Shown here piece after piece: positions 4,849 through 61,152 of a stretch of DNA of 64,000 nucleotides. This DNA comes from Eledone cirrhosa (taxonomy: Eukaryota), in assembly GCA_964016885.1 (NCBI GenBank), contig OZ024743.1:54808001-54872000 (forward strand), read 5' to 3'. A model generated the notes under the pieces. That model did no database searches and had not been told where the DNA came from. It was given only the letters and a program-made list of their open reading frames with translations. Numbering within the stretch: the stretch's first letter is position 1; every line of letters starts with the position of its first letter. A program made the translations under genes and the position numbers.

Positions 4849-4976
4849 GTGTATCCCGGGTTCAATCGGTGGTAACTACAGTAAGTAAGGTACTCAATAC
4901 ATGCAGAGTATAAATATTTGATATAGAAATGGCTTCTACAGGACTAGAACTGCTTAATTCGAAAGAAATCATCAGA

Positions 4977-5025
4977 AAGCTCTGATGATTTCCTTCGAAT
5001 GAAACAGTTCTCGTCCTGTAGAAGT
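4977..5025 (+). ncRNA. Type I hammerhead in palindromic insert 4853-5036
   Basis: CTGATGA t ttc cttc gaa t GAAACAG ttctcgtc CTGTA gaag. A mirror copy with mutated GAAA lies on the minus strand at ~4931-4980. Relatives at 37573-37755 and 55110-55235. Confidence 0.7.
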
Positions 5026-5062
5026 CATTTCTATATGTGATATATATATATATATATATATG

Positions 5063-5541: not shown

Positions 5542-6030
5542 TACGGCCTCGATATGAATACCCCCTCCGCCTCCGTAGTATTTTCTTCGTGGTTATAAGA
5601 GGCTTAGCTCTGTTTCTCGACCGTTATATCGCGTGACTATCTCCCCCTCCGCCTTTTGGGATTCTTTCTCACGTCGTGTAGACGCGTTCTTGAGACTAGT
5701 AAAATGAGGTATCCTCTTGATAAGTTGGCAGACCTCGCAAGGACTCTATATCTTTGATATATTGTTTTTGTTTATGCCACGAAACTACGTAGTCGAGGAA
5801 TTTAGGAGCAGTTTAGATATGATACATTTTATTACTAATTATATCTAAATGTTTCTTCTCTCTTCATAATGTATTTTTAACTCTGATACTGGTTCAGTCT
5901 GGTTCAAACTGAATTGGTCTGTCCCAGTCATTCATTGAGCAACATCGGTGAAGTTGGCACCCTTAACTCACAGTTGGGTGCGGATGCATTCATGTATATA
6001 TGTGTGTGTCCGCATGTATCTGTGTGTTTC

Positions 6031-6035
<5 letters not shown>
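5542..6035 (+). mobile_element. Retrozyme-like family A, partial monomer
   Basis: Near-identical to 20394-21137 and 41604-42327; flanked by (TA)n; no credible ORF. Confidence 0.8.
5713..5798 (+). ncRNA. Type I hammerhead, U3-A8 core variant (family A)
   Basis: cctc-TTGATAA-gt(t)ggca...tgccac-GAAAC tacgta GTC-gagg. Predicted cleavage after 5794. Confidence 0.8.
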
Positions 6036-6084
<49 letters not shown>

Positions 6085-12988: not shown

Positions 12989-15900
12989 CTACAGGCGCAT
13001 GATCAGAGTAGGCCCACTCACGCGGGCCATTCTCGCCACATTCACCCACCTTTCAGTAAATGTACTGGGGGGCAGCACTTCTCTCTCCACCCTCACCTTC
13101 CTTTCCAAGTGAAACTTGAAGAAGTTGATGAGGGATTGGCCGAAGAGAAAAGTGTCTGTCTTCAGTCCTTTCAACCTGGTCCACCATGCAACCTCTTTCG
13201 CTACTGCCACCAGGCAGAGGAAAATTGCCTGCCCTTCCTGACCAAAAGAAGGCGGCGGGTCAATCTTCACTATGGACTCGGACGATAGCCGGATCCGTTC
13301 TACACGCGACAATAGCTGTTCGACATAACCCCACAAGTCAGCAATGCACGGACACTGGACGAGTGCGTGCAGAACGGTTTCGTCGCTCTGCGCGCATCTC
13401 GGGCAGGTTCGTCTGACAGCACTTCCGTGCCAGTAGAGTTTATCCCGAACCGGCAGCGACCCCCGGTAGCACTGCCAAGCGAGGGATTTCTGGAAGTTAT
13501 CCATCGTCCCCGGCTCGAAAGTCCTCCGGAACATACTGGTCAGTTCTACTTCGTTGACGCCTAGAGCCTCTCCTAGTACGTCATCGTACTTGCCCTCCAC
13601 TAATCCTCTATAGAAATCTTGAGTAGAAGTTCCACTGACCGCATTGCCCACCTTGCAGAGTGCAGTGAGCGCCTGGCAACATTCCAGATGCCAGTCGCCC
13701 AGTCTCGGTCTCTTCTTGACCCAGGACTGCAGCTCAGTCAAAGAGATGAGCTGCGGAAAGGCCCGTCTAACAAACGGCGACCACACCTGTTCACCGTTTA
13801 GGCAAAATATCTGGGGATGTCGCAGCCTCAGCGCATGTCTGCGCATCATTAGCCACGACATGCCCAGCCCTCCACGAAGAGTGTGCTGGCAGCAGATGGA
13901 CCGCCTCACCAACGGGACCCGTCCCCTCCACAAAAATTTGAAAAGGAGCCGTTCCAAATTGGCGAGGCGTGGACGGGGGCAAGGCACGACGGTCAGGCGG
14001 TAGTAGATGACGGACGCGATGTACGCGTTCGCCACCTCCGCCCGCCCTTTCAGTGATAGCTTTCTCTCAGCCCATTTCTGGGTGAGGTTGGCTATCCTGC
14101 TCGTCACCTCGTCCCAATTCTTATCCACCTGGAGGTCTGGTCCGAACCAAACCCCGAGCAACTTTACCGGTCCGTCTGTCCAGCGCCCAACGACGCTGTT
14201 GGACGGCATGGACTTGCCTCTCCAGGTGCCGAGCTGCAAGCCCACCGACTTTTCCGGGTTAAGTTTTGCTCCCGTCAACCTTTCATATTCCTCCAAATGG
14301 GTGCGGATCACCTCGATTTCCGAGGTGTCCGACACCATCACGGTGATGTCGTCTGCATAAGCGGACGCAGCCTTTCTACGTCCCGGTTCGAGCGGGATGC
14401 CCTGCAACAACTCCAGCTTCCGCAGTAGAGGCTCAAGAGTCAATACGTACAGAAGTGAGGAGAGAGGGCACCATTGACGGACCGATCGAGAGATCTGAAA
14501 CGGTTCCGAGAGGTGGCCATTAACTTTGACCACCGAGCAGATGCCGCTGTACATTGCAGCGATCCAGCTTCTGAAGACGGGGCCGAAGCCAGCCGCCTCG
14601 AGGACAGCCTCCAAGTACCGATGGTCGACCCTATCGAATGCTTTCGATTGATCTAAATTGATCAGAGCCCCACCGAAGCCAGGTTTGCACCCAACCCTCT
14701 CTATGATGTATCGCATGAGGTGGAGGTTGTCGTGTATGGACCTGGTCGGGATTGCGCAAGTTTGCGCCTCTCCAACCAAATCTTTGACGACAAGCGCCAA
14801 CCTTTTCGCTAACACCTTGGCCAAAATCTTAAACTCTGTGTTGAGCAGGGTTATGGGCCAGAAATTATCTAGTGTGTCCCTCTTGTTCTCGTCTTTCCTT
14901 ATCAGCGTCACTACGCCACGGCTCACAGAACTGGGAATGCTCCCGTTCTGCTGCCAGTTGCAGTAGAGCGCTTCGAGGAGATCGGAGAACAAGTCTGGCA
15001 TATTTACGTAAAGCTCGTAGGGCAGACCATCCAAACCGGGTGACTTGCGACTCGAGCAGCCGACAAGGGCGTCCTGAATTTCGACTGATGTTATCGGCTC
15101 TTCGCAGCGCTCAGCGTCGGCCGTCGAGAGGCGTGGCAAGCCGTCGAGGTAGGGACTGAAGTCCGCAGCCGTCTCCGACTCACCCATCCTCCCGAACAAT
15201 CGAGCAAAGTGCTGGCGAAAGGCCTCACACATCTGCTTGGAATCGCTCAGTTCGTGTCCATCTCGATCCGTCAAAGACCGAATTGTGGTTTTATTTCCAC
15301 GCTGCGTCTCTGCAAAGCGAGCCCATCGGGCAGCTTTGGTTCCCTCGTTCCTCAGAGCACGCGCCTTAGCTCTGACAATGCAACCTTCGTGTTTCGCATT
15401 GAAGAAATGGTCTAGTGCCATTCTCGCCGCTAGCACGTCTGTTGCAATGCCACTACAACTAGCCTCGTCTAACTGAGCTATCAGCCCCTCCTCCTTTCTA
15501 TTTTTCTCTATTGCTACTTCTTTGCTAAATCCTATCGAGGTTGCTCTAATCTCTCTTTTGAGAGCCCCCCACCACCTGTTGTTGACAACCCCCCCTGTCA
15601 ACTTTTGCTTAACTAAGTTGTTGACCCGGTCCCTGTAAGCTTTACGTGCCGGAAACGACATGTTTAGCTTCCAGTAGCAAGGTCCTAACCTACGTGTCTT
15701 ATCTAGGTCGACCATACAGATCACAAGCTTGTGATCTGAATAGGCAACCGTTTTAAAATGTGGACATCCTACACTATTTCTATCTCTTTTCCTAAAGAAA
15801 ATCCTATCTATGTACGATCTAGATGACCCTATGCGATTGGTCCAGGTCCATACTGGCGCATTAGGGAAATCTAGTCGGTACCTGTCAGACAGTTGAAACT

Positions 15901-16408
15901 GGCTGATCAGGTACTTGAGGCTTTTGCACCCCCCGCTCCTATCAGATACTCCCACACAATCCCAGCGTGCTTCTAAGATGCCATTCCAATCCCCTATTAA
16001 CAGTAAAGGGCGAGACGTAAGCAGAAAGTTTTCCAGGCGCCTAAAGAAGTCCGGCCGACCGGCCCCAGTAGGGGCGTAGACGGCCACCAGTCTAAAGGCA
16101 CCACCTTCGCTATTGCTCACGTCCAGGACCACCAACTTGCCGTCAGGATCCCGGAAGATTGACCTTACCTCGAGATCCAGACATTTCCTAAACAGCACAG
16201 CCACTCCACCTCCCATTCCCGGCCGACTAACAGATGCAAAGATCTGATAATCGTCGAAAATCGGCGCCAGTGCGCGTGTGTCGGAAATTCTGGTCTCGCT
16301 GATGGCAATTACATCCATTCCTAGTGACCTGAGGTCGTTGAGCAAGTGACCTTGCTTCCAGGGCGACCCCAGGCCACGAACATTTAAACTTCCTACTCTT
16401 ATGGCCAT
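12989..16408 (-). CDS. LINE ORF2: AP endonuclease + reverse transcriptase + C-terminal Cys/His motif (1139 aa)
   Basis: SLNVRGL, GDWN and SDH (endonuclease); PGLDG, LDQSKAFDRV and AYADD (RT); CPRC...ETVLHALVQC. Confidence 0.95.
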   Translation of the reverse strand: MAIRVGSLNVRGLGSPWKQGHLLNDLRSLGMDVIAISETRISDTRALAPIFDDYQIFASVSRPGMGGGVAVLFRKCLDLEVRSIFRDPDGKLVVLDVSNSEGGAFRLVAVYAPTGAGRPDFFRRLENFLLTSRPLLLIGDWNGILEARWDCVGVSDRSGGCKSLKYLISQFQLSDRYRLDFPNAPVWTWTNRIGSSRSYIDRIFFRKRDRNSVGCPHFKTVAYSDHKLVICMVDLDKTRRLGPCYWKLNMSFPARKAYRDRVNNLVKQKLTGGVVNNRWWGALKREIRATSIGFSKEVAIEKNRKEEGLIAQLDEASCSGIATDVLAARMALDHFFNAKHEGCIVRAKARALRNEGTKAARWARFAETQRGNKTTIRSLTDRDGHELSDSKQMCEAFRQHFARLFGRMGESETAADFSPYLDGLPRLSTADAERCEEPITSVEIQDALVGCSSRKSPGLDGLPYELYVNMPDLFSDLLEALYCNWQQNGSIPSSVSRGVVTLIRKDENKRDTLDNFWPITLLNTEFKILAKVLAKRLALVVKDLVGEAQTCAIPTRSIHDNLHLMRYIIERVGCKPGFGGALINLDQSKAFDRVDHRYLEAVLEAAGFGPVFRSWIAAMYSGICSVVKVNGHLSEPFQISRSVRQWCPLSSLLYVLTLEPLLRKLELLQGIPLEPGRRKAASAYADDITVMVSDTSEIEVIRTHLEEYERLTGAKLNPEKSVGLQLGTWRGKSMPSNSVVGRWTDGPVKLLGVWFGPDLQVDKNWDEVTSRIANLTQKWAERKLSLKGRAEVANAYIASVIYYRLTVVPCPRPRLANLERLLFKFLWRGRVPLVRRSICCQHTLRGGLGMSWLMMRRHALRLRHPQIFCLNGEQVWSPFVRRAFPQLISLTELQSWVKKRPRLGDWHLECCQALTALCKVGNAVSGTSTQDFYRGLVEGKYDDVLGEALGVNEVELTSMFRRTFEPGTMDNFQKSLAWQCYRGSLPVRDKLYWHGSAVRRTCPRCAQSDETVLHALVQCPCIADLWGYVEQLLSRVERIRLSSESIVKIDPPPSFGQEGQAIFLCLVAVAKEVAWWTRLKGLKTDTFLFGQSLINFFKFHLERKVRVEREVLPPSTFTERWVNVARMARVSGPTLIMRL

Positions 16409-16440
16409 GCTGGCAGGATGAATGGGAGAGGAAAGGTTTA

Positions 16441-18351
16441 CTAACCTTCCGGGGTCTTGTGAAGGTCGGGTGGTTCGACCTCCATGGTTTGTGGGGTTTC
16501 TTTTGGGAACCCCTTTAATAGTCTTGAAGTGGGTTTTACGTTCGGGGTTCCCACATCCCGAGGAAAGCTCTTTCGAATTTCTTTGTATGAAGCGAGCGAC
16601 ATTCGCATCAGAAGCAAATTATCTGGTACGCGAAATGTGCTCGCTTCAAATGTTTCCCCCTCTTTTTCGATGTTTGTGCTTCGTGCTACATGGGCCATCA
16701 ATTCCTTGTTGGCCCTTCTGGCAAGCACGAAGTTTTTAATGTTTTGTTGCTCAGGTTTTATTTGTTCGTGTGATTGTGGTGGTGATAGCTTTGTTAGTGT
16801 TGTTTCTATTGTGTCTGCGTTTGTTGTGGGTGGGGTGTCTGTAGTTTCTGATGTTTGTGTGTCTATTTGTTCTTGTGTCTGTTTAGCTTGTTTGCGTTTG
16901 GGGGATTTTGGTGGTTGTGTTGGTGATGCTGTGGGGAAAATGTTTGTGTGGGTGGTGTGTGTATTTTTTTTTGTGGGGGTGTTTGTGCTTTGCGGATTTC
17001 TTTTTTTTTTGTGTTTTGTTTTTTGTATTTTGGGGGACTTTGGTTTTCCCTCATCTTCACTGCTGGAGGATGAGGGGTCTGTGGCTGTGAGCGTGTTTGT
17101 GTCTGAGTGAGTGTTTATGTTCTTGTTCTTGTGTGTATTTGGGGGGGGGGGAGGGGGAATGGGAGAGCTTTCCTCGTTTCCCCCCTGGGTGTGCAATTTT
17201 GGTGGTTCCATTGTTGACGGTGTTGCTGGTGGTCCTTGTCCCGGCGTCGCCAGCAGTAGAATCTTTCGACCCCTTGCGCTTTTCGGCAGTTGAGGGCAGA
17301 AGGCTCGCAAGTGTGTCGTTTCCCCACAAAGGAAACAATGCGGCCTTTTGCCCTCAGTCATTATATGCAACACCCTCCCGTTTTGGAGGCGGATGTGGTC
17401 CGGGATTGCTTTTACGTTTTCGGGTCTGATTTGGAGCAGTATCTCCAGATCAACCCCGGACCAGTCGTCCCTGGCAGTTCTCGTTGCCTCTACCGGGACT
17501 GTATCCGTTCCTTCCACGATTACGCAACCCAGGAGCCACCACATATCAAGTCCTGGTGGAATCCTGGGAATGCGCACACGTGCTATTCGTTTTCCCATGT
17601 GGGAGGGGTACATTATGACCTTGCTGGTTTTGCAAGGGGTCATTGAATGCTTCACAGCGAGGGCTTCAGACTTGAACAGCACCGAAACGGTGCCGTATTG
17701 CCTGCCCCTCTCTATGAAGTCTGTGTCCTCTCTGATGTATTTCAGTGCGGCTTCTATATCAGCTTGGGTTATTATCGCTGCCCTCTTTGTCTCTACTGAG
17801 ATGCATCTGAAATGCACCGTTCTTTTTTCCACTGCCTCAATGGCTTCTGCCGGGACAGTTAAGTTTGCCCAGGTCTGCTCTTGATTTATGATTTTCCAGG
17901 CCTGGGCCAACTTTTCCTCTCTGTTGGTTAAGTCGATGCTGTAGCATGGTCTCCTTTTAGCCGCTGCCACAGCAGCGAAGGTGTTCTTGTTGGTGTTGTC
18001 ACTGTTTTTGTTCTTGTTGGTGTTGCTGCTGCTATTGCTGTTGTTGTTCTCCCCTGTGTCGTGGTTACCCTCTGTGCTGTTGGCCTTGTTGGTGCTGCTG
18101 CTGTCGCTACTATTACTCTCTGTGCTGTTCGTTTTGTTGGTGCTCTCGCTATTACCACCTTCTGCGCTGTTCGGCTTGTTGGTGTTGGTGTTGTCGCTGT
18201 TACCACCTTCCGCGCCGCTCGGCCCGTTGGTGCTGGCACTGTCGCTGCTCACACTCGTGCTGGTGGCGCTCCTCGCCCCACCTCTCCTCTCAACGCTCAA
18301 GTCGCCGTTGCACGACAGCAGACCCGCCTCTAGGGGGCGTGGCTCCGCCAT
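16441..18351 (-). CDS. LINE ORF1 (gag-like, CCHC zinc knuckle, 636 aa)
   Basis: CFLCGETTHLRAFC fits CX2CX4HX4C; Ser/Asn-rich N-terminus; ends 32 bp upstream of ORF2. Confidence 0.9.
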   Translation of the reverse strand: MAEPRPLEAGLLSCNGDLSVERRGGARSATSTSVSSDSASTNGPSGAEGGNSDNTNTNKPNSAEGGNSESTNKTNSTESNSSDSSSTNKANSTEGNHDTGENNNSNSSSNTNKNKNSDNTNKNTFAAVAAAKRRPCYSIDLTNREEKLAQAWKIINQEQTWANLTVPAEAIEAVEKRTVHFRCISVETKRAAIITQADIEAALKYIREDTDFIERGRQYGTVSVLFKSEALAVKHSMTPCKTSKVIMYPSHMGKRIARVRIPRIPPGLDMWWLLGCVIVEGTDTVPVEATRTARDDWSGVDLEILLQIRPENVKAIPDHIRLQNGRVLHIMTEGKRPHCFLCGETTHLRAFCPQLPKSARGRKILLLATPGQGPPATPSTMEPPKLHTQGGNEESSPIPPPPPPNTHKNKNINTHSDTNTLTATDPSSSSSEDEGKPKSPKIQKTKHKKKRNPQSTNTPTKKNTHTTHTNIFPTASPTQPPKSPKRKQAKQTQEQIDTQTSETTDTPPTTNADTIETTLTKLSPPQSHEQIKPEQQNIKNFVLARRANKELMAHVARSTNIEKEGETFEASTFRVPDNLLLMRMSLASYKEIRKSFPRDVGTPNVKPTSRLLKGFPKETPQTMEVEPPDLHKTPEG

Positions 18352-18877
18352 GTTTTTTTGAGAAAAAAAATTATTATTTTTCCAAAATAAAGTTCAAATA
18401 TTTGGGCCAAAAGGCCCAAATATTATGAGTTATTCCTTCACAGGATACAAATGAATGTCTTATAATGCTTCAGCGGTACAAAAAAATAAACAATTCTCCA
18501 CAATTAATCCTCAAAAAATTGCTTACTCACGGAGCTTCAAAAAACGTACATCCACTCTCGTCAATAATAATAATAATAATAATAATAACAACAATAATAA
18601 TAACGACAACAACAATAATAATATACATATACATATATATATGCACATACACGCACACACATAAAGATATCTATACACACACACACACACGATACCAACT
18701 AACAGCGCTGCGATCGAATGTGGCTTTTTAGCCAAGCCAATGATCTAAAATGTCTTGCACAGAGTCGGCAACCAAAACATTCACTGGGAATAGTCGGCTG
18801 TGGTTGGAGTTCGTGTACTTTTGCATGTCGTGGTAATTTCGTGGTAATTTCTATGTAGGTTATACTTGGAGTAATAA

Positions 18878-20352: not shown

Positions 20353-20358
<6 letters not shown>
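18878..20358 (-). mobile_element. 5'-truncated PLE with inverted terminal arm
   Basis: Degenerate GIY-YIG (CNCHLPDKCPLQ...MVYLC...YIDST...KRWYVH) at ~19870-20255; 20280-20358 is an inverted copy of 18878-18956. Confidence 0.85.
18933..19043 (-). ncRNA. Type I hammerhead (A9>U, probably decayed)
   Basis: gtgct-CTGATGT-gttgacc...gatcaac-GAAAC aatt GTC-agtac. Confidence 0.7.
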
Positions 20359-20393
<35 letters not shown>

Positions 20394-20395
<2 letters not shown>

Positions 20396-21132
20396 CAATA
20401 TATTTAGAAACACACAGATACATGCGGACACACACATATATACATGAATGCATCCGCACCCAACTGTGGGTTAAGGGTGCCAACTTCACCGATGTTGCTC
20501 AATGAATGACCGGGACAGACCAATTCAGTTGAACTAGACTGAACCAGTATCAGAGTTAAAAATACATTATGAAGAGAGAAGAAACATTTAGATATAATTA
20601 GTAATAAAATGTATCATACCTAAACTGCTCCTAAATTCCTCGACTACGTAGTTTCGTGGCATAAACAAAAACAATATATCATAAAGATATAGAGTCCCTG
20701 CGAGGTCTGCCGACTTATCAAGAGGATACCTCATTTTACTAGTCTCAAGAACGCGTCTACACGACGTGAGAAAGAATCCCAAAAGGCGGAGGGGGAGATA
20801 GTCACGCGATATAACGGTCGAGAAACAGAGCTAAGCCTCTTATAACCCCGAAGAAAATACCACAGAGGCGGAGGGGGTATTCATATCGAGGCCGCAGAAG
20901 AGGTGGTGAAGAAGGCTAGAAGTATGAGTAATGGAAGCTTTCCAGTTGTCCCCACACTTCAAAGATTGCTCGACCAGAGGGAGTTATTAACAATATATTT
21001 AGAAACACACAGATACATGCGGACACACACATATATACATGAATGCATCCGCGTAGTCGAGGAATTTAGGAGCAGTTTAGGTATGATACATTTTATTACT
21101 AATTATATCTAAATGTTTCTTCTCTCTTCATA

Positions 21133-21137
<5 letters not shown>
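20394..21137 (-). mobile_element. Retrozyme-like family A, ~1.1 monomer plus inverted arm
   Basis: CAATATATTTAGAAAC recurs at 20396 and 20991 (period 595); strand switch at ~21052; hammerhead at 20638-20725 (-). Confidence 0.85.
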
Positions 21138-21209
<72 letters not shown>

Positions 21210-21380
21210 AGTTAATATAAATTAATATATATGATAAACACTAATACAATCATATAAGTGTTTGTATTGTAAATGACCAAGTTAGCTAAATTGAAAAATA
21301 CTAATTAGATTAATACAGTTTGCCTGTCTCGATTTAAAATAATAAATCAATAAAAACAAACCCATATTGGCAATAGCTGT

Positions 21381-21510
21381 GGTACTTGGACAAATTTAAA
21401 TTTCAAAATACAAACCTGTTCCGTAGATAAGTTTAAACTTCAAAACCCAAATAAGTTTCGATAATTGAAAAAGTGAAACATTCCATCTTCTGTTCTCATC
21501 AGCAAGTACC
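21381..21510 (-). ncRNA. Type I hammerhead with long stem III (family B)
   Basis: ggtacttg-CTGATGA-ga...tc-GAAAC...(~60 nt)...GTC-caagtacc; perfect 8-bp helix I. Confidence 0.75.
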
Positions 21511-22074
21511 CAGAAAATTGGTATGTTTCACCTCAGAATATTTAAGAGGACTGATCGACGCACATGGTTTTTCAGCGTCTAGCTACCCCATACTCGTGCT
21601 GCTAGAAATAACAGACGTTTATATGGGACTAAAATTAGCTCAACAATAGAGTAATAAACTCAAACAGTCTTTTACAATTAAATAGCTCAAAGAAAGAAGT
21701 ATTTCTGAGCCGTGAAATACAAGTTAATATGAATTAATATATATGATAAACACTAATACAATCATATGTGTTTGTATTGTAAATGACCAAGTTAGCTAGA
21801 TTGAAAAATACTAATTTGATTAATACAGTTTGCCTGTCTCGATTTAAAATAATAATTATTATTTTAAACTTATCTACGGAACAGGTTTGGATTTTGAAAT
21901 TTAAATTTGTCCAAGTACCACGGCTATTGCCAATATGGGTTTGTTTTTATTGATTTATTATTTTAAATCGAGACAGGCAAACTGTATTAATCTAATTAGT
22001 ATTTTTCAATCTAGCTAACTTGGTCATTTACAATACAAACACTTATATGATTGTATTAGTGTTTATCATATATA

Positions 22075-22167
22075 GGTTGACTTTGCCTTTCATCCTTACG
22101 GGGTCGATTAAATAAAGTACCAGTAATGCACTGGGTAATTGCTGGCCTTGTGCCTAATGTAGAAACA
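22075..22167 (+). mobile_element. 5'-truncated SINE nested in family B
   Basis: 20-bp TSD ATTAGTGTTTATCATATATA at 22055-22074 and 22168-22187. Confidence 0.85.
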
Positions 22168-22286
22168 ATTAGTGTTTATCATATATATTAATTTATATTA
22201 ACTTGTATTTCACGGCTCAGAAATACTTCTTTCTTCGAGCTATTTAATTGTAAAAGACTGTTTGAGTTTATAACTCTATATATATA

Positions 22287-22356
<70 letters not shown>

Positions 22357-24886: not shown

Positions 24887-27024
24887 ATGGCTATGAAAAA
24901 GAATTTTCATAGGTCACTCCCACTCATTCCGTCTTCTACTTCCCCCAATCGTCACTACAGCAGAGAGAAGATTGTCTCTCTCCCTTCCTTCTCTAAATGT
25001 GTCTCTCTCCCTCCCTTCTCTTTCGCAAGCGACGCCAGGAAAGAAAAATCACGTGCAAAGCGTGCAAGATTTCTCCACGACGACGACGACAAAGACGAAA
25101 AAGGTGTGCGGGAAATACGAAAACCCATTTCATTCGTCTGACGTCAGGAATAATAGCAGTAGCAGCCGTAATAACAGCAGCAGCAGCAACAGTGACAAGG
25201 AAAACAACAGTAGCAGCCGCAACAGCATCAGCAGTAGCATAAACAACAACAGCATTAGCAGCAACAGCAACAACAACAGCAGCAGCAGCAACAACAACAA
25301 CAACCACAGCAACAGCGGCAGCGGCAGTAGTCGTAGTACCTGCAGCAACAACAAAAGTAACAGCAGCTCTGACGACAACAACAACAACAGCAAAGCAAAA
25401 CAAATTTCGTTTGCAGGTATCGCAAAGAACCTGGAAGCCATCCTCATAACAAATGAGGAATTAGAGGAAGCGAAGAAGATGGTGACGAAAACCGGACACC
25501 GAGCAATCTGCAAGGCAGCCGAAAAAATTTTCGAAACCCAACAGCACTGTACGGTCACGTACCGTACAGTAAGCACAAAATCCCGTAGGGTTGAAAGAGC
25601 CACAGAGGCTCAAATACAAAAAGCCTTAGGGTCTGAGTGGCAGCGGAAAACGCACATCACCCGAGGCAAGAAATATGCCACCGTAGACGTGCTTTTTGCC
25701 ACACCCCAGGAGGCAAAGGTTCAATCCTTAGTGACCCTAAGGAGCGAGGAAATGGTGTTGGTGCCCTCCTACTGCGGGCAAAAAATTGTGAGGGTCAAAC
25801 TGACCCCCCCCCCCCCTCGGGATGGCCCATTCTTGGCTGGCCGCGTCTGTCCTCGTCGGAATCGAGGACAAAACAACTGTACTGCAAGTACAGAAAAAAG
25901 TAAGAGAAGATTGGGTCGGCACCTCCATTGAGATGTTAATCCAAACCAACCAGGAGTGCATCGAAGCTATCCCGGATATGATAGACTTCGATAACGGCAC
26001 TCAACTGCCCATAAGTGTTGCGGGCAAACACCCGAAATGCTTTCGCTGTGGATCGAAGACTCACCTCAGGGTCTTCTGCAACGAGAAGACCCTGAGAAAG
26101 GAGAAAACCCCCCTCCTTCCGAAACAGGCTCCACGGCTACCAGCAATAGGACAAGCGGCAACCAGGAACGATAGGTCCGTGGCACCCATACCCACGCCAC
26201 GGAAATCAAGAACAGCAGCAGCAGTGGGAGTATTAACAACAACAACAGTAATACCAAATGCAGCTGCAACAAAGACTCCACTGCAAACATCACCAACAAT
26301 AACAAGTGAAAGAGTGGAGTTGGTACCCCTCCCCGACCTCACAGAATCATACATGGAGTGTGAGGTGGGAGAGGGATGGCAAAAGGTCGTAAGAAGGCAC
26401 AAACGCAGAAGCAGCGCATCGTCGCCTTCGAAAAGGGAAGAAAGAAATGAAAAAAGGGTAAAGGCTACTGCAAAGAGACTCACAGCAGCAACACCACCAA
26501 CACCCTCACCACCCACACTAGCACCACCATCACCACCGGCGACAACCCCACCGCCAACAACAACAACACCTTCAACACCACCACCACAAGCACCAATATC
26601 GCAAACACAACAACAAAACACACACACCCAGCAACAACAACAAGAAAATAGCAGAACCACACCCCACCCGCAGAAAAACAAATGCACGGCAATAAATACA
26701 CACAATAAGAAACAAATGACTTACATAATTGAACACACAGACATTTCACAGCACGACTACATAATACTAACACCAATCAAAAGGCCAACGAACATAAGAC
26801 TGCTAAAAATAGCACAGAAACAATACACAAACATTAAAACGAAATTCCCCAACTCAGTTGGTGATTTCAGAGACCTAAGAGGGACTCTCAACCGAAGAGT
26901 ATATTCGGACATACTCATAGAAGAGCCGACGACCAGCCGAAGGGACGATTCAACGGTCCCTTCACCAGACGATCAAGTGAAAATGGATGGACAAACCATC
27001 CTTCCTCTACGAAAAGTACGGTAA
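24887..27024 (+). pseudogene. LINE ORF1, frameshifted
   Basis: ATG after an A-run as in element 1; spread over three frames (one shift at the poly-C near 25805); CFRCGSKTHLRVFC zinc knuckle. Confidence 0.8.
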
Positions 27025-27059
27025 GTGGTCTTTCCCATCTTTTCCACTCTATTTTAAAC

Positions 27060-30000
27060 ATGACCTCACTCAGAATAGGCAGCATAAATGCGCGTGGCTT
27101 GGGGTCGTCATGGAAGCAGGGTCACCTGCTCAACGACCTCAGGTCACTAAACATAAATGTAGTGGCCATCAGCGAGACCAGAATCTCCGAAGCACGGGCC
27201 TTCGCACCGATCTTCGGCGGCTACGATGTGTACGCATCTCCCAGCCGTCCTGGATCGGGGGGAGGAGTTGCTGTGCTTTTTCGGAGAGGTTTGGATCTCG
27301 CCATACGGGCCATCTTCCTGGACCCAGAGGGTAAGTTGGTGGTGCTGGACGTGACCAGCGGAGACGGGCAAGCTTTCAGGCTAGTGGCCGTCTGTGCCCC
27401 GACAGGAGCAGGGCGGCCTGATTTCTTCCGGCTTCTGGAGACCTTTCTTGGAACGTCCCGCTCTTTAGTGTTAGTGGGCGACTGGAACGGGATCTTAGAT
27501 GCACGTTGTGACTGTGTGGGATTAGCGGATAGGGGTGGAGGGTGCAAGAGCCTCACCAACCTGCTCAGGCGTTTTGAACTGTCTGACAGGTACTGATTGG
27601 ATTTCCCGAATGTGCCAATGTGGACTTGGACAAATCGGAGAGGGTCATCCAGATCATATCTACATAGAGTATTTTGTAGGGAAATAGATAGGTCTAGCAT
27701 AGGCTGTCCACAATTCAAGATAGTCAGCTACACGGACCACAAATTCGTGATCTGTGTGCTTGACTTAGATAGGATTCATAGACGAGGACCCGGCTACTGG
27801 AAGCTAAACGCGTCCTTACCAGCGCGCAAGGCCTACAGAGACCGGATTAGCGAACTAGTTAAGCGGGCGTTGACGGGGCCCATCGTCAACAACAAGTGGT
27901 GGTTTGCTCTGAAAAGAGCGATTAGAATAGAATCCATTAGATTTAGTAAGGCTTTACCAATAGAGAAAAATAGAGCAGAGGGAGAACTAGTTAGAAAATT
28001 AGACGAGGCGCTTAGCAAAGGCATTGCGACCGACTTGCTTGCGGCGAAATTGGCCCTTGGCCAATTCTTCAATGCAAAGCACGAAGGCTGCGTTGTCAGA
28101 GCTAGGGTGCGTGCTCTCAGACACGAGGAGACGAAAGCCGTTCAATGGGCCCGAGTGGCAGAGGCGCATCGTGGCAACAAAGCCACGATCCGGTCTTTGG
28201 TGGACCACGACGGGCGCATGCTACTAGATCCCGGGAAAATGTGTGAAGCTTTTCAGCGACACTTCGCTCAGCTGTTCGGGGGCAGTGGTGGGTCGGGTCG
28301 AGGGATGGACTTTAGTGTCTACCTCGACGGACAGCCGCGGCTATCGGTCACTGAGGCGGAGTTTTGCGAAAAGCCGATAACAACCGCTGAAGTACGGGAG
28401 GCAATGACTGGCTGCACAAGGAGTAAATCGCCTGGTTTGGATGGTCTGCCCTATGAACTTTACGTACAGATGCCAGACTTGTTCGGAGGCCTCTTGGCGG
28501 ACGTCTACTGCAACTGGCAACAGAACGGGAGAATTCCCAGTTCTGTGAGCCGAGGAGCGGTGGCGCTGCTGAGAAAGGATCCGAACAAGGGGGATAACAT
28601 AGACAATTTTAGGCCCATAACTCTGCTAAACACAGAGTTCAAGATTTTGGCCAAGGTGCTAGCAAAGAGGTTGGCGCTTGTCGTTGGTGGTCTGGTGGGA
28701 GAGGCGCAGACATGCGCCATTCCCGAGAGATCCATCCACGACAACCTCCACCTCATGCAATACATCGTAGAGAGGGTAGCTAGGGAACCTGGAACGGGTG
28801 GGTCCTTGATCAATTTAGATCAGTCGAAAACTTTCGATAGGGTCGACCATCGTTACCTAGCGGCAGTCCTGAGGCGGCTGGCTTTGGGCCCGTCTTCAGA
28901 GGCTGGATCGCTGCCATGCACAGCGACATCTGCTCTGTGGTGAGAGTGAACGGTCACCTTTCGGAACCGTTCAACATCATGCGCTCGGTCCGCCAAGGAT
29001 GTCCCCTCTCGTCCCTCTTGTACGTATTGACTCTCGAGCCATTACTGCACAAACTGGAAACGTTGAGAGGCGTCCCGCGCGAACTAGGATGCGGAAGATC
29101 CACGTCAGCATATGCGGACGATGTCACCGTAGTGGTGTCGAACGCCAAACACATCGAGGCGATCGGCACTACACTAAGAGAATACGAAGCGGTGACAGGA
29201 GCAATGATCAACCAGGAAAAGTCAGTGGGCCTGCAGCCCGGCACCTGAAGAGGCAGGTCCATGCCGTCCAACAGCGTCGTCGGACGCTGGACAGACGGAC
29301 CGGTTAAATTGCTAGGGGTCTGGTTCGGTCCGGACCTCCAGACGGACAAAAACTTGTACGAGGTGACGAGCAGGGTGGCTTCTCTCACCCAGAAATGGGC
29401 GGAGAGAAAGCTATCCCTGAAAGGTCGAGCGCAGGTGGCTAACGCGTACATCGCGTCTGTCATCTGCTACCGCCTGACCGTCGTACCTTGTTCTAAGCCC
29501 CGCCTGACTGCGCTGGAGCGTTTGCTCTTTCGCTTTTTGTGGAAGGGACGCGCTCCGATGGTCAGGAGGTCCATCTGCTGTCAACACCCGCTACGTGGAG
29601 GGCTGGGCATGCCGTGGCTGATGATGCGCAGACACGCGCTCAGGCTACGACATCTCCACCTCTTCCTCGGCGGTGATCAGGTGTGGTCGCCGTTTGCTAG
29701 AGACGTATTTCCCCAGCTTGTTTCCTTGACGGAGCTGCAGTCCTGGGTCAAGCGAAGACCGAGAGGGAGCGCCTGGAGTCTGGAATGTCTTTAGGCGCTC
29801 ACAGCCCTCGACCAATCGGGTAATGTGATCGGTGGAAACTCCACCTCGGCGTTCTATAGAGGATTAGTGGAGAGGAAGAGCGACGACGTACTTGGGGAAA
29901 CTCTAGGCTTCGACTAAAATCAACTAGCCAATCTCTTCGGAAGAACTTTCGGGCCGGGACCTATGGACAACTTCCAGAAATCTCTGGCCTGGCAGTGCTA

Positions 30001-30479
30001 CTGAAGAGCCTTGCCAGTTCGGGATAAACTCTACAGGCGGTGCCGTCAGCCGGGCATGTCCGAGATGCGCGCAGGGCGACGAAACCGTCCTGCATGCACT
30101 CATCCAATGTCCGAAAATTGCTGACTTGTGGGTTTATGTCGAACACCTGCTGTCGCGTGTAGGACGGATCCGGCTATCATCTGAGTCCATCGTGAGGATT
30201 GCCCCGCCCTCTTCCTTTAGCCGGGAAGGGCAGGCAGTTTTTATCTGTCTGGTGGCCATGGCGAAAGAGATAGTATGGTGGACACGTTTGAAAGGGCTGA
30301 AGACGAGCACTTACCTCTTCGGTGATGCCCTGATTAACTTTTTCAAATTTCATTTGAAAAGGAAAATCAGGGTAGAGAGGGAAGTGCTCTCTTCCCAGCA
30401 TTTTGTTGAAAGATGGGTGAGAGAAGCAAGAATGACCCGAGTGAATGGGGCCTACTCTGAGTACGTATCTGTAAATTAA
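27060..30479 (+). pseudogene. LINE ORF2 with stops and frameshifts
   Basis: Segments 27060-27596, 27597-28943, 28916-29248, 29261-29794 and 30126-30479 are collinear with the intact ORF2; QGCPLS and YADD present. Confidence 0.93.
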
Positions 30480-33191: not shown

Positions 33192-33263
33192 CATATATAT
33201 ACATGCATACATAAATACAGACATACTTACAGTAGTCTCTTACAATTAAGTTTTTCCGAGCCG

Positions 33264-33715
33264 TGTAATATAATTGAATAAACAAGAGAGATGAACATTA
33301 ATATAAACATACATGTGTTCGAATCGTGAGGCTATTTTTAGCGGCATGGGATTTCAAGACAAGCTGGATTCCGGATACACGTGCGCTATTTCATATCGCC
33401 CCCAATTCAGTCTTCTAATATCTTTAGAAGTAGAAGGATCACTAATTTCTCAACAACTACTGAGGAGCAGAGAAACGTGTTGACTTTACTTAATAAGATG
33501 TTGCGGAACAGTTTTCAAAACTGTGTAGTTGTTACCAGGCTATTGCCCGATATAGGTCTATTATTTTTCTTAATTTACTACTTAAAATTAAGTCTGACAA
33601 ACCATACTTCTGTAGTTAGTATTTTTTCACCCTAGCTAACCTAGTCCTTTCGATTCGAACACATGTATGTTTATATTAGTGTTCATCTCTCTTGTTTATT
33701 CAATTATATATTACA
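33264..33715. mobile_element. Two-armed insert with degenerate hammerhead (33452-33533, +)
   Basis: ~60-bp terminal inverted arms; aacaacta-CTGAGGA-gcag...ttgc-GGAAC agttttcaaaact GTG-tagttgtt. Confidence 0.65.
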
Positions 33716-34229
33716 TACTTACATATATATACATATATATATATACATACGTATATATAGATACATATGATGGGTGCCACTCGATTTCCAGTCATGGTAT
33801 TATTTGATACTTAAGCATGAGCATCACGAACGTCACCTTTTAGTCCTGCCTATCGGACTTGCCTATATCCAGCCATGCATATATCAAGCGATGCTCGTGC
33901 TTGAAACTTTTTTAAGTGAGGAAAGGCTTTGCACGGGGTCAATCCCACTCTTTGAACATCAAATGCATTTACCCCAAAAGAACTTGTCTACATCATTCGA
34001 TGCAAAGGAAATCGCATGTTTTATGACATTTTTCTAGAAAGAAATATCTTAATGAAGACTAGGAATCTCTCGGTCCACAAAAACCAATTTTATTCGATAG
34101 CCGTTGACTCTTATGAGTTTTCCCGCCCGTTGACGGGTTTTGCTTTTCATCCCGCAGGGTGTCCAGAATTTGTGGGTTTTCCGGTTTAGTCACCGACGAG
34201 CCGACCAGGCACAGGTTGTTCTAGGTTAC

Positions 34230-39835: not shown

Positions 39836-39895
<60 letters not shown>

Positions 39896-39933
39896 TAATA
39901 TAAAATCAAAAGATGGTTAAAAGAGTTTCATGT

Positions 39934-40002
39934 ATTTTATTATGCGCATTTCAAAAACAAATATCATCATGGGATGATATTTGCGTTCTCATCAGATAAA
40001 AT
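39934..40002 (-). ncRNA. Intact type I hammerhead in PLE pLTR-derived insert 39893-40170
   Basis: attttat-CTGATGA-gaac gcaaatatcatc ccat gatgatatttgt tttt-GAAAT gcgc ATA-ataaaat. Confidence 0.85.
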
Positions 40003-40457
40003 AGGGAGACATGATATGAAGCTTAAAAAACACTTGCGAGCAGTGAAGTTTTAAATCAACATATGAAAAATAAAATAAGATGAATATATGAGATTGGGAA
40101 AAAGGAAACGAAGGTGGGGGGGGGGGGGGGGGGAATTGTGCTACAATAAAACTCACCTCCTACATTAACATTATTTATACAGTATATAGATATAACGAAG
40201 GAAGTATGGTAAGGAACCAGATGCACCATAACGCACCAGAGTACTCAATACTTAGGGTAATAGTCGGTAATAGGAAAATGTTTAACCCCGACGGCAGAGC
40301 TCAAGCCATTTCGACGGCTATTTCTGGACGCGTCCAGATGAGTATTGACGTACATGTACGTCAATACTTATCTTTTTCCATTTCTCCGAGGGTTCTTAAC
40401 CCCACTATCAGGCTAAATAATTTTCTTAAGTCAAAATACGGCGATAGCTCACATTTA

Positions 40458-41549: not shown

Positions 41550-41603
<54 letters not shown>

Positions 41604-41608
<5 letters not shown>

Positions 41609-42327
41609 TTAGAAACACACAGATACATGCGGACACACACATATATACATGAATGCATCCGCACCCAACTGTGAGTTAAGTATGATACATTTTATTACTA
41701 ATTATATCTAAATGTTTCTTCTCTCTTCATAATGTATTTTTAACTCTGATACTGGTTCAGTCTGGTTCAAACTGAATTGGTCTGTCCCAGTCATTCATTG
41801 AGCAACATCGGTGAAGTTGGCACCCTTAACTCACAGTTGGGTGCGGATGCATTCATGTATATATGTGTGTGTCCGCATGTATCTGTGTGTTTCTAAATGT
41901 ATTAATAACTCCCTCTGGTCGAGCAATCTTTGAAGTGTGGGGACAACTGGAAAGCTTCCATTACTCATACTTCTCGCCTTCTTCACTACCTCTTCTACGG
42001 CCTCGATATGAATACCCCCTCCGCCTCCGTGGTATTTTTTTCGTGGTTATAAGAGGCTTAGCTCTGTTTCTCGACCGTTATATCGCGTGACTATCTCCCC
42101 CTCCGCCTTTTGGGATTCTTTCTCACGTCGTGTAGACGCGTTCTTGAGACTAGTAAAATGAGGTATCCTCTTGATAAGTCGGCAGACCTCGCAAGGACTC
42201 TATATCTTTGATATATTGTTTTTGTTTATGCCACGAAACTACGTAGTCGAGGAATTTAGGAACAGTTTAGGTATGATACATTTTATTACTAATTATATCT
42301 AAATGTTTCTTCTCTCTTCATAATGTA
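41604..42327 (+). mobile_element. Retrozyme-like family A, ~1.1 monomer plus inverted arm
   Basis: TATGATACATTTT recurs at 41681 and 42272 (period 591); 41604-41680 is inverted; hammerhead at 42167-42252. Confidence 0.85.
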
Positions 42328-42791
42328 TATATATATATATATATATATGCACATACAAATAAATACACTCGCGTAATGAATCAATGAATGAATCCCACTC
42401 TTGTGGCTGATCTTCCTTGGTTTTAGTCACAACCACCTCCGGACCACACGTTTTATCTTCATGCTCTCTTCGGGAAGAATAGGGTCAGTGGGCCCCAAGT
42501 TCTCTTCAGACCCGATTTACTGTTAGGTATGATTTCTTTAGCCTTAGTCTCGACACTAGCTCTCACAGGCAATGGAGGTTTATGCTCGGTGGTGTCGTTC
42601 TTCTAATCTGGCTGTCTTTCTAGGCTGCTTAGTCCAGATCAATCGTTATACGCGATAGGGACCTTAGTGTCAGACGTGCTGTTAAACAACTGGGTATGTG
42701 GCAACACTCAGCTTCTGTTAAAGCTTGTCTGTGTATATTGGAGTACCGTTCCTTTAAATCATCCCCACCACACACATGTGTGTGTGCGTGC

Positions 42792-44480: not shown

Positions 44481-47400
44481 ATTTCTGTTTATTTGCCACG
44501 AGGGCACAAAAGAAAGGGACACATCCATGGGGGGGGGGGGGGTTACATAGAAATCGAGTAAAAAAATGTAATAACAAATAAAATTATAACAAAAAGGTCC
44601 TCAATAGGGAGGGATCGTTTTGGGGTCACACAGACCGCCGAAAAAAAATGTGCAACCCTTCTCCACGGGAGCACAAAGAGAGGGTGCTCCCTTCTTCCTT
44701 CATCCTTTTCCACCTACAGGCTGAGGTAGAGAGAAGGCCCATTGACACGGGCCATTCTCGCAACTTTCACTCACCTTTCATAAAACTGGCTGGGGTGGAG
44801 CACCTCTCTCTCCATCCTGATCCTTCTTCCGAAATGGTATCGGAAGAAAAGGACGAGTTGTTGGCCGGAAAGAAAGGTGTCCGACCTCAGCCCTTTTAGA
44901 CGCGACCACCATACAACCTCTTTTACCATGGCTATTACACAGAGGAAGACCGCCTCTCCTTCATTTTTGAAGGGGGAGGCGGCTTGATCGTTACAATGGA
45001 CTCGGTGGTCAACCTAATTAGTCCCACCCGTGACAGCAGTTGTTCGACAGCCCCACAGATCGGCAATGCCCGGATAGTGTACCAATGCGTGCGCGACGGT
45101 TTCCTCGTCGCGCACGCATCTGGGACAGATCTTTTTCGAGGGGTCCCTACCCTGGCGCCCGTGTCTGTAGAGCTTATCCCGAACGGGCAGAGCCCCTCGG
45201 TAGCACTGCCAGGCCAAGGACTTCAGGAAGTGGTCCATAGGTCCCGGGCCGAAAGTCCTACCGAATAGGCTGGCCAGTTCGTCCTCCTCCATGCCTAGGG
45301 TTTCTCCGAGGGCGTCGTCGCACCTGCTAACCACCAACCCTCTATAGAATGACGAAGTGGAGTCTCCACCGACAGCCGGGTCCGCCTGCCAGAGAGCCGT
45401 AAGCGCCTAGGCACACTCGGTGTGCCAGTCGCCCAGTTTTCTCGGTCTTTGCTTCACCCAGGACTACAGCTCGGTGAGCGAGACGAGCCTCGGGAAGGCT
45501 CGCCTCACAAACGGGGCCCACACCGGTTGACCGGTGAGGAATACCTGGAGGTATCGTAGCCTCAATGCGTGTTTACGCATTTTTAGCCACGGCATCCCCA
45601 GCCCTCCTTTCAAAGGGTGTTGACAGCAGATAGATCTCCTCACCAGAGGAGACCTCTTCTTCCAAAGGAAATGAAAGAGAGCGCGCTCCATTTTGGCGAG
45701 GATCTCACCCGGGCAAGGCACGACAGTCAAGCGGTAATAGATGACGGACGCTATGTAAGCGTTCGCCACCTCCGCCCGACCTTTCAGGGATAGTTTGCAC
45801 TCGGCCCACTTCTGGGTCAGTGCAAACACCCTATTCGTCACCTCAACCCAATTTTTCTCCACCTGGAGGTCCGGTCCGAACCAGACCCCAATCAACTTCA
45901 CCGGGCCCTCCGTCCACCGTCCGACGATACCGTCGGACGACATCGGTTTTCCCCTCCACTCGCCGAGTTGCAATGCGACTGACTTGTCCCGGTTCAACTT
46001 AGCCCCTGTCAAATTTTCGTACTCCTCCAGTAAGGTGCCGATTGCCACGATTTCCGCGGTGGTCGACACCATTACTGTTACGTCATCGGCGTAGGCCGAC
46101 ACCGCTTTGCGCAATCCCAGTTCCAAAGGGATGCCCTGCAACAACTCCAACTTCCGGACTAGTGGCTCGAGAGCCAATACATACAGAAGGGAGGAGAGAG
46201 GGCACCCCTGTCGGATGGAACGGGTGATTTCGAACGGCTCCGAGAGGTAGCCGTTCACCTTGACTCTAGAGCAGAAGCGGCTGCTATGCATGGCAGTGAT
46301 CCAGCCCCTGAAAACGGGTCCGAAACCAGCCGCCGCTAGCACCGCATCCAGGTAACCATGGTCCACCCTATCGAAAGCTTTAGACTGATCTAAATTTATC
46401 AGGGCCCCACCAAAGCCGCGTTCGTTCCCAACCCTCTCTATGATGTATCGCATGAGGTGGAGGTTGTCGTGGATGGACCTGGACGGGATAGCGTATGTCT
46501 GCGCATCTCCCCCCCCCCACGACAAGCGCCAGCCTTTTCGCTAACACCCTGGCCAAAATCTTTAACTCTGCATTTAGCAGAGTTATGGGCCTAAAATTAT
46601 TAAAATTACTAATGTTCTCGTCCTTCTCCACTAGCGAGACTACGCCCTTGGTCACAGAACAGGGAATTCTCCCGTTCTGTTGCCAGTTGCAGTAGACCGC
46701 CTCGAGGAGATCGGGGAACAAGTCCGGCATATTAATATATAGTTCGTAGGGCAGCCATCGTGGCCTGGAGATTTGCGTTTGCCGCATAGGTTTAGCACGT
46801 CCCCTATTTCAGCAGCTGAGATCGTCCTGTTGCAGGACCTCGTCTCCTCGTCCGAAAGACGCGGCAGGCCGTCGAGGTATGGACCGAAATCCCCCCCCCC
46901 CCCGCCCCATCGGACAAAGTGCCTTTGAAAGGCCTCGCACATCTGCTTAGGTTCAAGGATCACCCATCCATCCTGGTCTCGCAAAGACCGGATAGTGGAT
47001 CTAATCCCACTTTTGGCTTCTGTCACGCGAGCCCAGTTAACAGCTTTGGTCCCCTCGTTTCCCAGAGCACGTATTTTGCTTCGGACAACGCAGCCTTCGT
47101 GTTTCGCGTCGAAGAACTGGCTCAAGGCCGTTCTCGACGCTTGCACTCTGGCCACGTTGCCGCTTCTAATTGCCTCTTCAACATTCACTACCAACTCCCT
47201 TTCCTTCCTATTTCTATCTGAGGCTAACTCCTTAGTAACTCCTATTGAAACTACTCTAATCTCTCTTTTCAACCGCTCCTTAACTAAGGTTCTAATCCGG
47301 TGCCTGTAAGCTCTACTTGACGGTAAGGACAAGTTGAGCTTCCAGTAACCGGGTCCCTGCCTATGCGTTCTATTGTTACACCCCCCTCTATCGGGACATG

Positions 47401-47570
47401 CCCCTATATAGTCCCAACGTGCATCTAGGATACCATTCCAGTCCCCCACTAAAAGCAAGACGGGGGACGTCCCTAGAAAAGTCTCCAGACGATGGAAGAA
47501 GTCCAGCCGCATTGCCCCAAAAGGGGCGTAAACGGCGACCAGCCTAAAAGCTTCGCCTTCACCACTGCCA
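44481..47570 (-). mobile_element. 5'-truncated, decayed Tx1-clade LINE (ORF2 and 3' UTR)
   Basis: Broken ORF2 with GDWN, LDQSKAFDRV, QGCPLS and YADD; 3' end CCCTCGTGGCAAATAAACAGAAAT. Confidence 0.9.
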
Positions 47571-47871
47571 TGCAAACAACCTAAATATCTTTCGAGTATT
47601 CTACGTAAGTAGTATATGCTATATAGTAGGCAATAGTGGACAACCAACTAGTGTGTCTAAACGAAAGCAGGTGAAGGAATCTAATGGAATCTCTAGAATA
47701 TGATGGATATGAAGAGGCAATAGGCACGGAAGATGTCTCTTTACACAGTTAAATAGCAAAATACAAGTTAGTTTGGCGGTTGATGAATTACTAAGAGTTG
47801 CTTGTTACTCTTGTTAGTGTAGTTATCATTGTTATGGCGTTTGAGCAGAGGGAAAAAAGGGGAAAAGACAA

Positions 47872-50503: not shown

Positions 50504-50506
<3 letters not shown>
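49693..50506 (-). mobile_element. Internally deleted Tc1/mariner DD37D (maT/mori-type) transposon
   Basis: ~27-bp TIRs CAGGGTG.GGA.GATATTTGTTCGCAA with TA flanks; QDSAPCH...WPPSSPDCNPLD has 37 residues between the second and third catalytic Asp. Confidence 0.9.
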
Positions 50507-50573
<67 letters not shown>

Positions 50574-55650: not shown

Positions 55651-55696
55651 CACACACACACATATATATAGATAGATATAGATATAGATATATATA

Positions 55697-55940: not shown

Positions 55941-55995
55941 TATATATATATATGAGGGTGTTAAAGTTTGCTTGAAGCATTGTGAAATGTGTAAA

Positions 55996-56336
<341 letters not shown>

Positions 56337-56524: not shown

Positions 56525-56602
<78 letters not shown>

Positions 56603-57559: not shown

Positions 57560-57592
<33 letters not shown>

Positions 57593-61136: not shown

Positions 61137-61152
61137 CCGTTAAGGAGCAAGT

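Follow-up and report, generated by a model that had tools for sequence, protein, structure and literature searches.

Penelope-like elements (PLEs) are described as leaving a characteristic set of traces at their insertion sites, namely a partial tandem, an adjacent inverted 5'-truncated copy and a tail of 30-40 bp (PMC8557442). The Hydra clade combines (TA)n targets with 3' hammerheads, and the Naiad elements share the (TA)n preference (PMC8557442). In File S2 of that report, all 26 Hydra rows have a stem III of 3-4 bp with loops of 1-3 nt. An anole PLE, PAc, is reported to nick and extend both strands of AT-rich DNA, with two internal starts on the RNA that bound the tail; its hammerhead cuts only with the protein, and cutting is unnecessary for insertion in vitro (PMC11167929). 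The PLEs of fungi and protists are reported to carry type I hammerheads with a large helix III, and the Serpula motif cleaves as a single ribozyme (PMC4209133).

The non-LTR retrozymes are described as non-coding tandem units with type I hammerheads and have been proposed to be PLE derivatives (PMC7229834; 10.64898/2026.07.22.740005). In a 2026 survey, the retrozyme consensus sequences range from 51 to 972 bp, solo monomers are common, and eight of the nine predicted Xenopus retrozymes tested did not cleave (10.64898/2026.07.22.740005). For most motifs of invertebrate retrozymes, cleavage is said to be monomeric (PMC7761336). The role of the hammerhead in PLEs and the nature of the insertion template, an uncut multimer or a circle, are open questions in the reports cited (PMC8557442, PMC11167929). 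In a literature search that covered few subscription journals we found no description of the family reported here, or of an animal PLE hammerhead with such a stem III; the figures and supplements of the 2014, 2020 and 2026 reports may show similar motifs.

The element analyzed here (hereafter element B) spans positions 21209-22279 of a window of 64,000 nucleotides of Eledone cirrhosa DNA, which is the whole stretch that was analyzed. It is flanked on both sides by (TA)n tracts, the left one (21136-21209) being common to element B and an adjoining copy of another family (family A), and the right one lying at 22288-22353. A complete 512-bp unit (21209-21720), the sense strand of which is the minus strand and the 3' end of which is at 21209, is followed by a second, 5'-truncated unit of 135 bp (21721-21855, minus strand). 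This partial tandem repeats the first unit at a period of 512 with 95.7% identity, giving about 1.26 units in total. The inverted arm on the plus strand consists of two parts, 21863-22074, which matches 21437-21226 at 98.6%, and 22168-22279, which matches 21757-21646 at 97.3%. The former begins within stem III of the hammerhead described below, and has the GUC (21909-21911) and the 3' strand of helix I without the 5' core. The latter crosses the unit junction and has at its outer end a copy of the 75-nt tail segment (21646-21720, minus strand), which lies just beyond the junction. The direct and inverted portions meet at a 26-nt perfect palindrome (21843-21868), a fold-back that would reflect a snap-back followed by a short AT-rich microhomology. 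The first-pass annotation of this DNA had described about 1.25 direct units, an inverted arm and (TA)n flanks, and this architecture was borne out; the fold-back, the repeat inside the arm, the weak stem II and the two relatives described below were absent from it.

The two parts of the arm are separated by an unrelated dispersed repeat of 93 bp (22075-22167), bordered by a 20-bp direct repeat (22055-22074 and 22168-22187), its target duplication. Further matches to it are found near 0.9, 8.1, 11.1, 19.3, 37.9, 51.4, 52.5 and 52.8 kb of the window. Because of the flanking duplication and these eight other sites, we regard it as a later insertion; it resembles a common octopus SINE-like repeat. 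Each of the three copies of the 3' part in element B has private changes, which fits divergence after insertion. Site 21410 in the first unit differs from its counterpart 21890 in the arm, and the site is also polymorphic in family B. This difference weakly hints at different template units for the two cDNAs; the alternative is slippage in a run of T.

The unit has a GC content of 30% and its longest Met-ORF is 27 aa, so that it is non-coding; a GC content below 50% together with a type I hammerhead is a retrozyme trait. No ORF for the reverse transcriptase (RT) and GIY-YIG protein of an autonomous PLE lies inside the 512-bp unit. The head-to-tail junction 21720->21209, also typical of retrozymes, is present. 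The partial tandem with an adjacent inverted 5'-truncated copy is a feature of PLE insertions, as is a tail at one end only (75 nt in element B and 32 nt in its relative B2, which likewise shows the tandem and inverted copy). Insertion into (TA)n is expected of a Hydra-clade dependant but is non-diagnostic, since Naiad shares the preference. The locus has one complete hammerhead and a 3' half on the opposite strand, not the two complete ribozymes by which retrozymes are recognized.

Element B was compared with several other sequences. The first-pass annotation had called it unrelated to family A, and our comparison agrees: no similarity was detected, with a local score of 21 against a shuffle mean of 21.7 (74 of 100 shuffles scored as high). 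Homology to the hammerhead-bearing element at 39995 was tested and none was found. A 20-nt pattern from element B had no loci in metagenome contigs; its one match in a prokaryote genome was set aside as a 21-nt chance match without further similarity. No tRNA genes were found in the 64-kb window.

The hammerhead of element B lies on the minus strand. The 5' strand of helix I (21510-21503; three more pairs are possible past a bulged A) is followed by the CUGAUGA core (21502-21496), a stem II region of 36 nt (21495-21460), the GAAAC core (21459-21455; G12 A13 A14 A15.1 C15.2), a stem III insert of 63 nt (21454-21392), the GUC cleavage triplet (21391-21389) and the 3' strand of helix I (21388-21381), the predicted cut being between 21389 and 21388. 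Helix I consists of 8 Watson-Crick pairs. The canonical type I core (CUGANGA...GAAA...NUH, G10.1-C11.1, A15.1-U16.1) is present, and the layout is that of type I, with helix I open and helices II and III closed. Helix II, however, closes by only 2 bp (G10.1-C11.1 and one more pair), beyond which lie an internal loop and an apical hairpin. The motif descriptor matched none of 20,000 dinucleotide shuffles of the unit when helix I was required to have at least 5 bp, and none of 100 block-shuffled windows when at least 8 bp were required. Judged from its core and layout, the motif is a genuine type I hammerhead, and the minus-strand hammerhead with a canonical core and a perfect 8-bp helix I that had been annotated before is upheld.

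The stem III insert forms a long, in-register AU/GU-rich hairpin of 27 pairs, including the two closing pairs and many G.U pairs. Its predicted energy is -16.7 kcal/mol, against -2.4 on the opposite strand, and only 4 of 1000 shuffles fold equally well. It is non-palindromic: the short palindromic stem III of dimer-type PLE hammerheads is not found in element B, while it is found in B2 and in family A. The 63 nt measured agree with the roughly 60 nt between GAAAC and GUC noted previously. The stem had also been called unusual. It is so with respect to the 26 Hydra rows of 3-4 bp; it is not so with respect to fungal and protist PLEs, where a large helix III is described (PMC4209133). Within the stem, 21436-21429 repeats 8 nt around the core GAAAC (21458-21451), and a GGAAC is found in the apical loop at 21423-21419; speculatively, the long stem III may stem from an internal duplication.

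The folding analysis gave a mixed picture. The hammerhead region folds better than chance (z = -4.2). The minimum-energy fold of this copy, however, pairs the core with the 3' strand of stem II, and the active two-dimensional fold is predicted to cost 6.9 kcal/mol, compared with 2.2-7.6 for the other four hammerhead-like motifs in the window (secondary structure of the RNA alone). The predicted probability of the active fold in the isolated hammerhead is about 1e-5. When the whole unit is folded, helix I is not formed (P about 0.01) and is displaced by a long alternative hairpin; its pairing is already lost when the 5' flank extends to 21540. The whole unit is strongly self-paired (z -5.8), and as a circle it is predicted to be 66% paired with the ribozyme blocked. 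This copy itself may thus be a poor ribozyme. The weak stem II and the core-trapping fold of this subfamily would predict slow or protein-assisted cleavage. Rfam gave no match at gathering score in the window and 15 sub-threshold matches in 20500-22300, no ribozyme among them; an E-value search likewise gave no hammerhead for element B, and the neighbouring family A motif was missed too.

Two relatives of element B were found in the window. B2 (33222-33723, plus strand) has an inverted arm with a 32-nt tail and a 10-bp flanking direct repeat; 269 of 371 aligned columns are identical to element B (about 73%), and its arm crosses the homologous unit junction. Its hammerhead (33452-33533, plus strand) has an 8-bp palindromic stem III. 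In a core-anchored comparison of helix I between the two elements, 6 of 8 pairs are changed on both sides, 2 are identical and none is broken. The B2 core deviates twice (GGAAC and GUG) and, by the established requirements of the hammerhead core, its ribozyme is probably inactive. The GGAAC of B2 could also be aligned opposite the GGAAC in the apical loop of stem III of element B, which would make B2 a deletion derivative. We prefer this alignment less, as the 8-bp palindrome of B2 is perfect and a contig of organism B has the same UUGC ahead of GAAAC. B3 (1973-2265), a fold-back, is built of two 3' parts, and each of its arms ends about where the cleavage site would be. A 3'-terminal hairpin (21263-21236, minus strand) is kept in element B, B2 and both arms of B3; it has 11 consensus pairs, 2 of them double-changed, among four sequences of which two are the arms of one element. 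It is a candidate recognition signal for the RT. Element B belongs, as one branch, to a wider family whose members have a stem III that is short and palindromic or one that is long and hairpin-like. The proposal in the first-pass annotation of a second retrozyme-like lineage holds insofar as the sequence is apart from family A, non-coding and multi-copy; as an independent, isolated element it does not, since B2 and B3 lie in the same window.

Other copies were sought in public sequencing runs, where X1, X4, X6 and X8 (4 of the 10 listed, none of which is an RNA run; X2, X3, X5, X7, X9 and X10 were left out) were matched to the unit at 80% likeness. Organism A gave matches in 1311 contigs of X1 and 3160 reads of X8, and organisms B and D gave matches in 3 contigs of X4 and 10 contigs of X6. 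Family B is high-copy. The joint 21720->21209, which goes back 512, recurs in X1 (4 contigs) and in X8, and this recurrence shows that 512 bp is the unit of the family. Stem III is covered by about 350-430 reads in X8 and is bridged without gaps by single records in organism B (21391-21460) and organism D (21398-21478). It is found under three organism labels; the long stem III is genuinely family-wide.

The variants were taken from 40 of 167 variant rows, 14 of them in 21375-21493, each checked pair by pair. Among these rows, all four stem III variants keep or create pairs: G.U becomes A-U at 21441 (312 of 413 X8 reads) and at 21446 (378 of 386), U.U becomes A-U beside the core at 21454 (318 of 366), and U.U becomes U.G at 21410 (38 of 72). 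In helix I and its extension, the three paired sites among these rows remain paired as wobbles, and one variant is unpaired. A stem II variant at 21462 (53 of 71 reads) gains an extra pair and breaks the trap; of the other stem II variants among these rows, three leave their sites unpaired, another is in a loop, and that at 21482 breaks a pair. Double changes of the kind that had been asked of the helices are seen in helix I between element B and B2. The pair-keeping variants are mostly transitions at or towards G.U, where chance alone would often keep pairs, and they are supportive, not decisive. The majority alleles pair better than this copy.

No variant at a core base was found among the 40 rows of 167. 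In X8, however, depth falls to about 15 reads over the 5' core and to about 14-18 over the ribozyme's 5' half (21479-21514), so that CUGAUGA and the 5' strand of helix I are scarcely sampled. At 21461, where coverage drops, 270 X8 reads depart from the reference, from which it follows that most copies have a different stem II. Among the loose ends in X8 and X6, GUC is retained before differing helix I strands, and GUC and GAAAC are kept beside replaced neighbours in other subfamilies and in organism B. Record 7 of X1 has 3 differences over 21447-21539, and this suggests a weak stem II that characterizes the subfamily and is not private decay. Peaks of read starts and ends in X8 were not taken as evidence of cleavage, as they are probably restriction sites of a RAD library.

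We consider it likely that element B is a non-autonomous PLE derivative of the non-LTR retrozyme type with a 512-nt unit, mobilized in trans by the GIY-YIG/RT protein of a (TA)n-targeting PLE. The insertion could be explained as follows. A tandem source locus would be transcribed into an RNA exceeding unit length, and the PLE protein would nick both strands of the (TA)n tract. Two cDNAs would then be primed at separate sites within the RNA: the usual 3' end (21209) for one, and for the other the end of the tail, 75 nt further 3' (21646). Both would extend 5'-ward past an intact GUC; that from 21209 would cross the unit junction and halt after 1.26 units, and that from 21646 would cross the junction and end within stem III. 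A snap-back and a short microhomology would join the two cDNAs into a direct unit, a partial unit and an inverted arm, into which the SINE-like repeat was inserted afterwards.

Since both cDNAs traverse an intact GUC, the template would have been uncut, as a linear multimer, or religated, as a circle. A back-junction at the GUC, which had been suggested as a check, would be uninformative: once the cut ends are ligated, the sequence is again that of the genome. The ends of the inverted arms differ: the arm of element B starts 48 nt upstream of the cut, that of B2 far downstream, and those of family A about 6 nt upstream and about 20 nt downstream. Two of the six cases end at about the cleavage site, namely B3 and 61142-61202, which belongs to another family. 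Arms of this kind give a weak hint of cutting in vivo, although the arm of element B itself does not end there.

The mobilizing PLE was most likely of the Hydra clade. An ORF of this type lies in the window at 58677-61139 (minus strand; 820 aa from stop to stop), with DKT, the RT core, CxCX5C and, at the C terminus, a domain resembling GIY-YIG. Its Atlas neighbours score 0.95-0.98, with GIY-YIG and RT clusters among them; Pfam gave no useful match for this ORF. A Naiad identity was rejected, the C-terminal endonuclease, DKT and CxCX5C being Hydra features, and by eye the ORF resembles an octopus Hydra protein. We propose that it represents the kind of helper on which element B would depend. 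No DNA similarity was found between element B and the flanks of the ORF (scores of 24-32, with 5 to 64 of 100 shuffles as high), and no terminal sequence common to element B and the autonomous Hydra family was seen in the one in-window Hydra copy compared.

Several other elements were observed in the window. A second endonuclease fragment, 47% identical, lies beyond the Hydra ORF at 58055-58585 (minus strand), and the 3' region past the ORF has, about 45 nt ahead of (TA)n, a type I hammerhead with its core at 56700 and a palindromic stem III; 56600-61300 (minus strand) probably consists of nested Hydra copies. At 39889-40195 (minus strand) there is another 3' end with a hammerhead, whose core is at 39995 and which has an 8-bp helix I and a palindromic stem III. 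Upstream of the Hydra ORF, an inverted arm from that family (61142-61202, plus strand) stops no more than about 1 nt from the predicted cut, and the ORF is probably the one to which the family belongs. Family A copies are found at 20357-21138, 5544-6080 and 41562-42365, one of them sharing its (TA)n tract with element B; the family's hammerhead combines a core variant, U3-A8, with a stem II of 59 nt and a stem III that is palindromic. Three related two-ORF LINEs with 71-76% mutual identity lie at 12989-18393 (minus strand), 24897-30479 (plus strand) and 44713-47647, the first with an APE endonuclease, RT and zf-RVT. Two transposase-like fragments (49888-50536 and 62079-62356) are 95% identical over 280 bp and resemble those of Tc1/mariner elements. 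Further fold-back elements adjoin (TA)n tracts at 55250-56227, 61640-61882, 4909-5048 and 1132-1558, with a perfect 232-bp palindrome at 55996-56227; these may be other inverted insertions of the PLE type.

With regard to cleavage, the long stem III appears to remove the usual structural need for a dimer, so that we lean slightly towards cleavage in cis as a monomer in this family. One could go further and suppose a full non-LTR retrozyme, in which RNA multimers from tandem loci would self-cleave in monomeric fashion and the products would be ligated into 512-nt circles, the templates of rolling-circle target-primed reverse transcription. A circular template would then have left its traces in the 1.26 units and in the arm that crosses the junction. 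An intact GUC and the unit junction are traversed by both cDNA segments, the unit is as highly self-paired as noted above, the arms of B3 and of 61142-61202 end near the cleavage site as cut RNA ends would, and a circle model is published for retrozymes (PMC7229834). An uncut linear multimer, however, accounts for the same DNA. Only two of six arms stop there, two complete hammerheads were seen together at no locus, and 512 nt exceeds the 170-400 nt of the animal circles described as tested (PMC7229834). We regard the full retrozyme cycle as possible, but as less probable than its absence. A strand-swapping route, in which two stems III exchange strands or a half-ribozyme of the inverted arm or of a second transcript acts as the substrate, seems improbable. 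For a homoduplex of two stems III the predicted energy is -36.3 kcal/mol, compared with -29.8 for the pair of hairpins, but the same would be true of any long hairpin. The palindromic stem III of B2 would also suit such a route. By established folding kinetics, an intramolecular hairpin so stable should form first during transcription, and the half-ribozyme of the arm at this locus is on the opposite strand.

The hammerhead might instead be a relic decaying in a PLE pseudo-LTR, with movement on uncut RNA and stem III as a harmless neutral hairpin insertion. The weak stem II and trapped core of this subfamily, the deviant core of B2 and the strong variation of the stem II/core region among copies (the drop in coverage and the loose ends at 21461) are in line with such decay, as is the report that hammerhead cleavage of a PLE is dispensable for insertion in vitro (PMC11167929). 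A decaying motif would hardly be expected to show compensated changes in 6 of 8 pairs of helix I, GUC and GAAAC kept beside replaced neighbours, and majority alleles that pair better than this copy, and we consider this explanation unlikely. Far less probable still is a satellite-type repeat, or a 512-bp 3' end belonging to a longer autonomous element, with a likeness to a hammerhead that is coincidental. The sequence is AT-rich and Rfam has no hammerhead match, but Rfam also missed the family A motif; neither the empty result of the 20,000 shuffles nor the covariation of helix I would be expected by coincidence, and the unit junction is common to the arms of element B and B2 and many other copies. 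Our preferred reading remains the non-autonomous PLE derivative. A bolder extension of it, which we hold to be rather doubtful, is that within one animal Penelope-dependent family stem III switched between the dimer-type palindrome of B2 and a monomer-type hairpin of about 25 pairs, now found across several related species. Single dispersed copies would thereby be freed from a tandem partner, and the alternative fold would silence the ribozyme in the finished 512-nt circle, as in viroids.

The pair of element B and B2, with stem III of the monomer and dimer type, offers a direct natural test of whether dimer dependence matters. The insertion also preserves, for a non-autonomous element, a clear trace of priming from two starts and on two strands, and its ribozyme represents a class of genomic hammerhead missed by Rfam models. 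Among known systems, the PLE-associated hammerheads described from fungi and protists (Cervera and de la Pena 2014) are, like that of element B, of type I, with a large helix III and no recognizable contact between loops 1 and 2. Those PLEs lack the endonuclease, are telomere-associated and autonomous, whereas element B is of the animal type, (TA)n-targeted and non-autonomous. In the account of the Anolis Poseidon PLE PAc (Frangieh et al. 2024), two-strand nicking, a two-start tail and a protein-assisted hammerhead fit the anatomy and the trapped fold seen here; PAc, however, is autonomous and of another clade, and element B may use other signals.

The non-LTR retrozymes (Cervera and de la Pena 2020; Li et al.), as reported, share with element B a single type I hammerhead in each unit, units joined head to tail, co-occurrence with PLEs and solo monomers, and 512 bp falls inside the range of the 2026 survey. 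Element B differs from them in its one complete ribozyme at the locus, a unit longer than the tested circles, the inverted arm and the tail; its stem III, at 63 nt, and its stem II, at 36 nt, also set it apart. The Hydra-clade PLEs (Craig et al. 2021) resemble it in the (TA)n target, the hammerhead near the 3' end and the partial tandem, inverted copy and tail, and an ORF of this clade lies in the same window. In contrast to them, element B lacks an ORF, and its DNA shows no detectable similarity to the Hydra copy in the window. Its stem III of 63 nt is far outside the Hydra set of File S2, and its tail of 75 nt exceeds the 30-40 described as usual for PLEs (PMC8557442). Element B is a variation on a known animal mobile RNA and no new kind of element.
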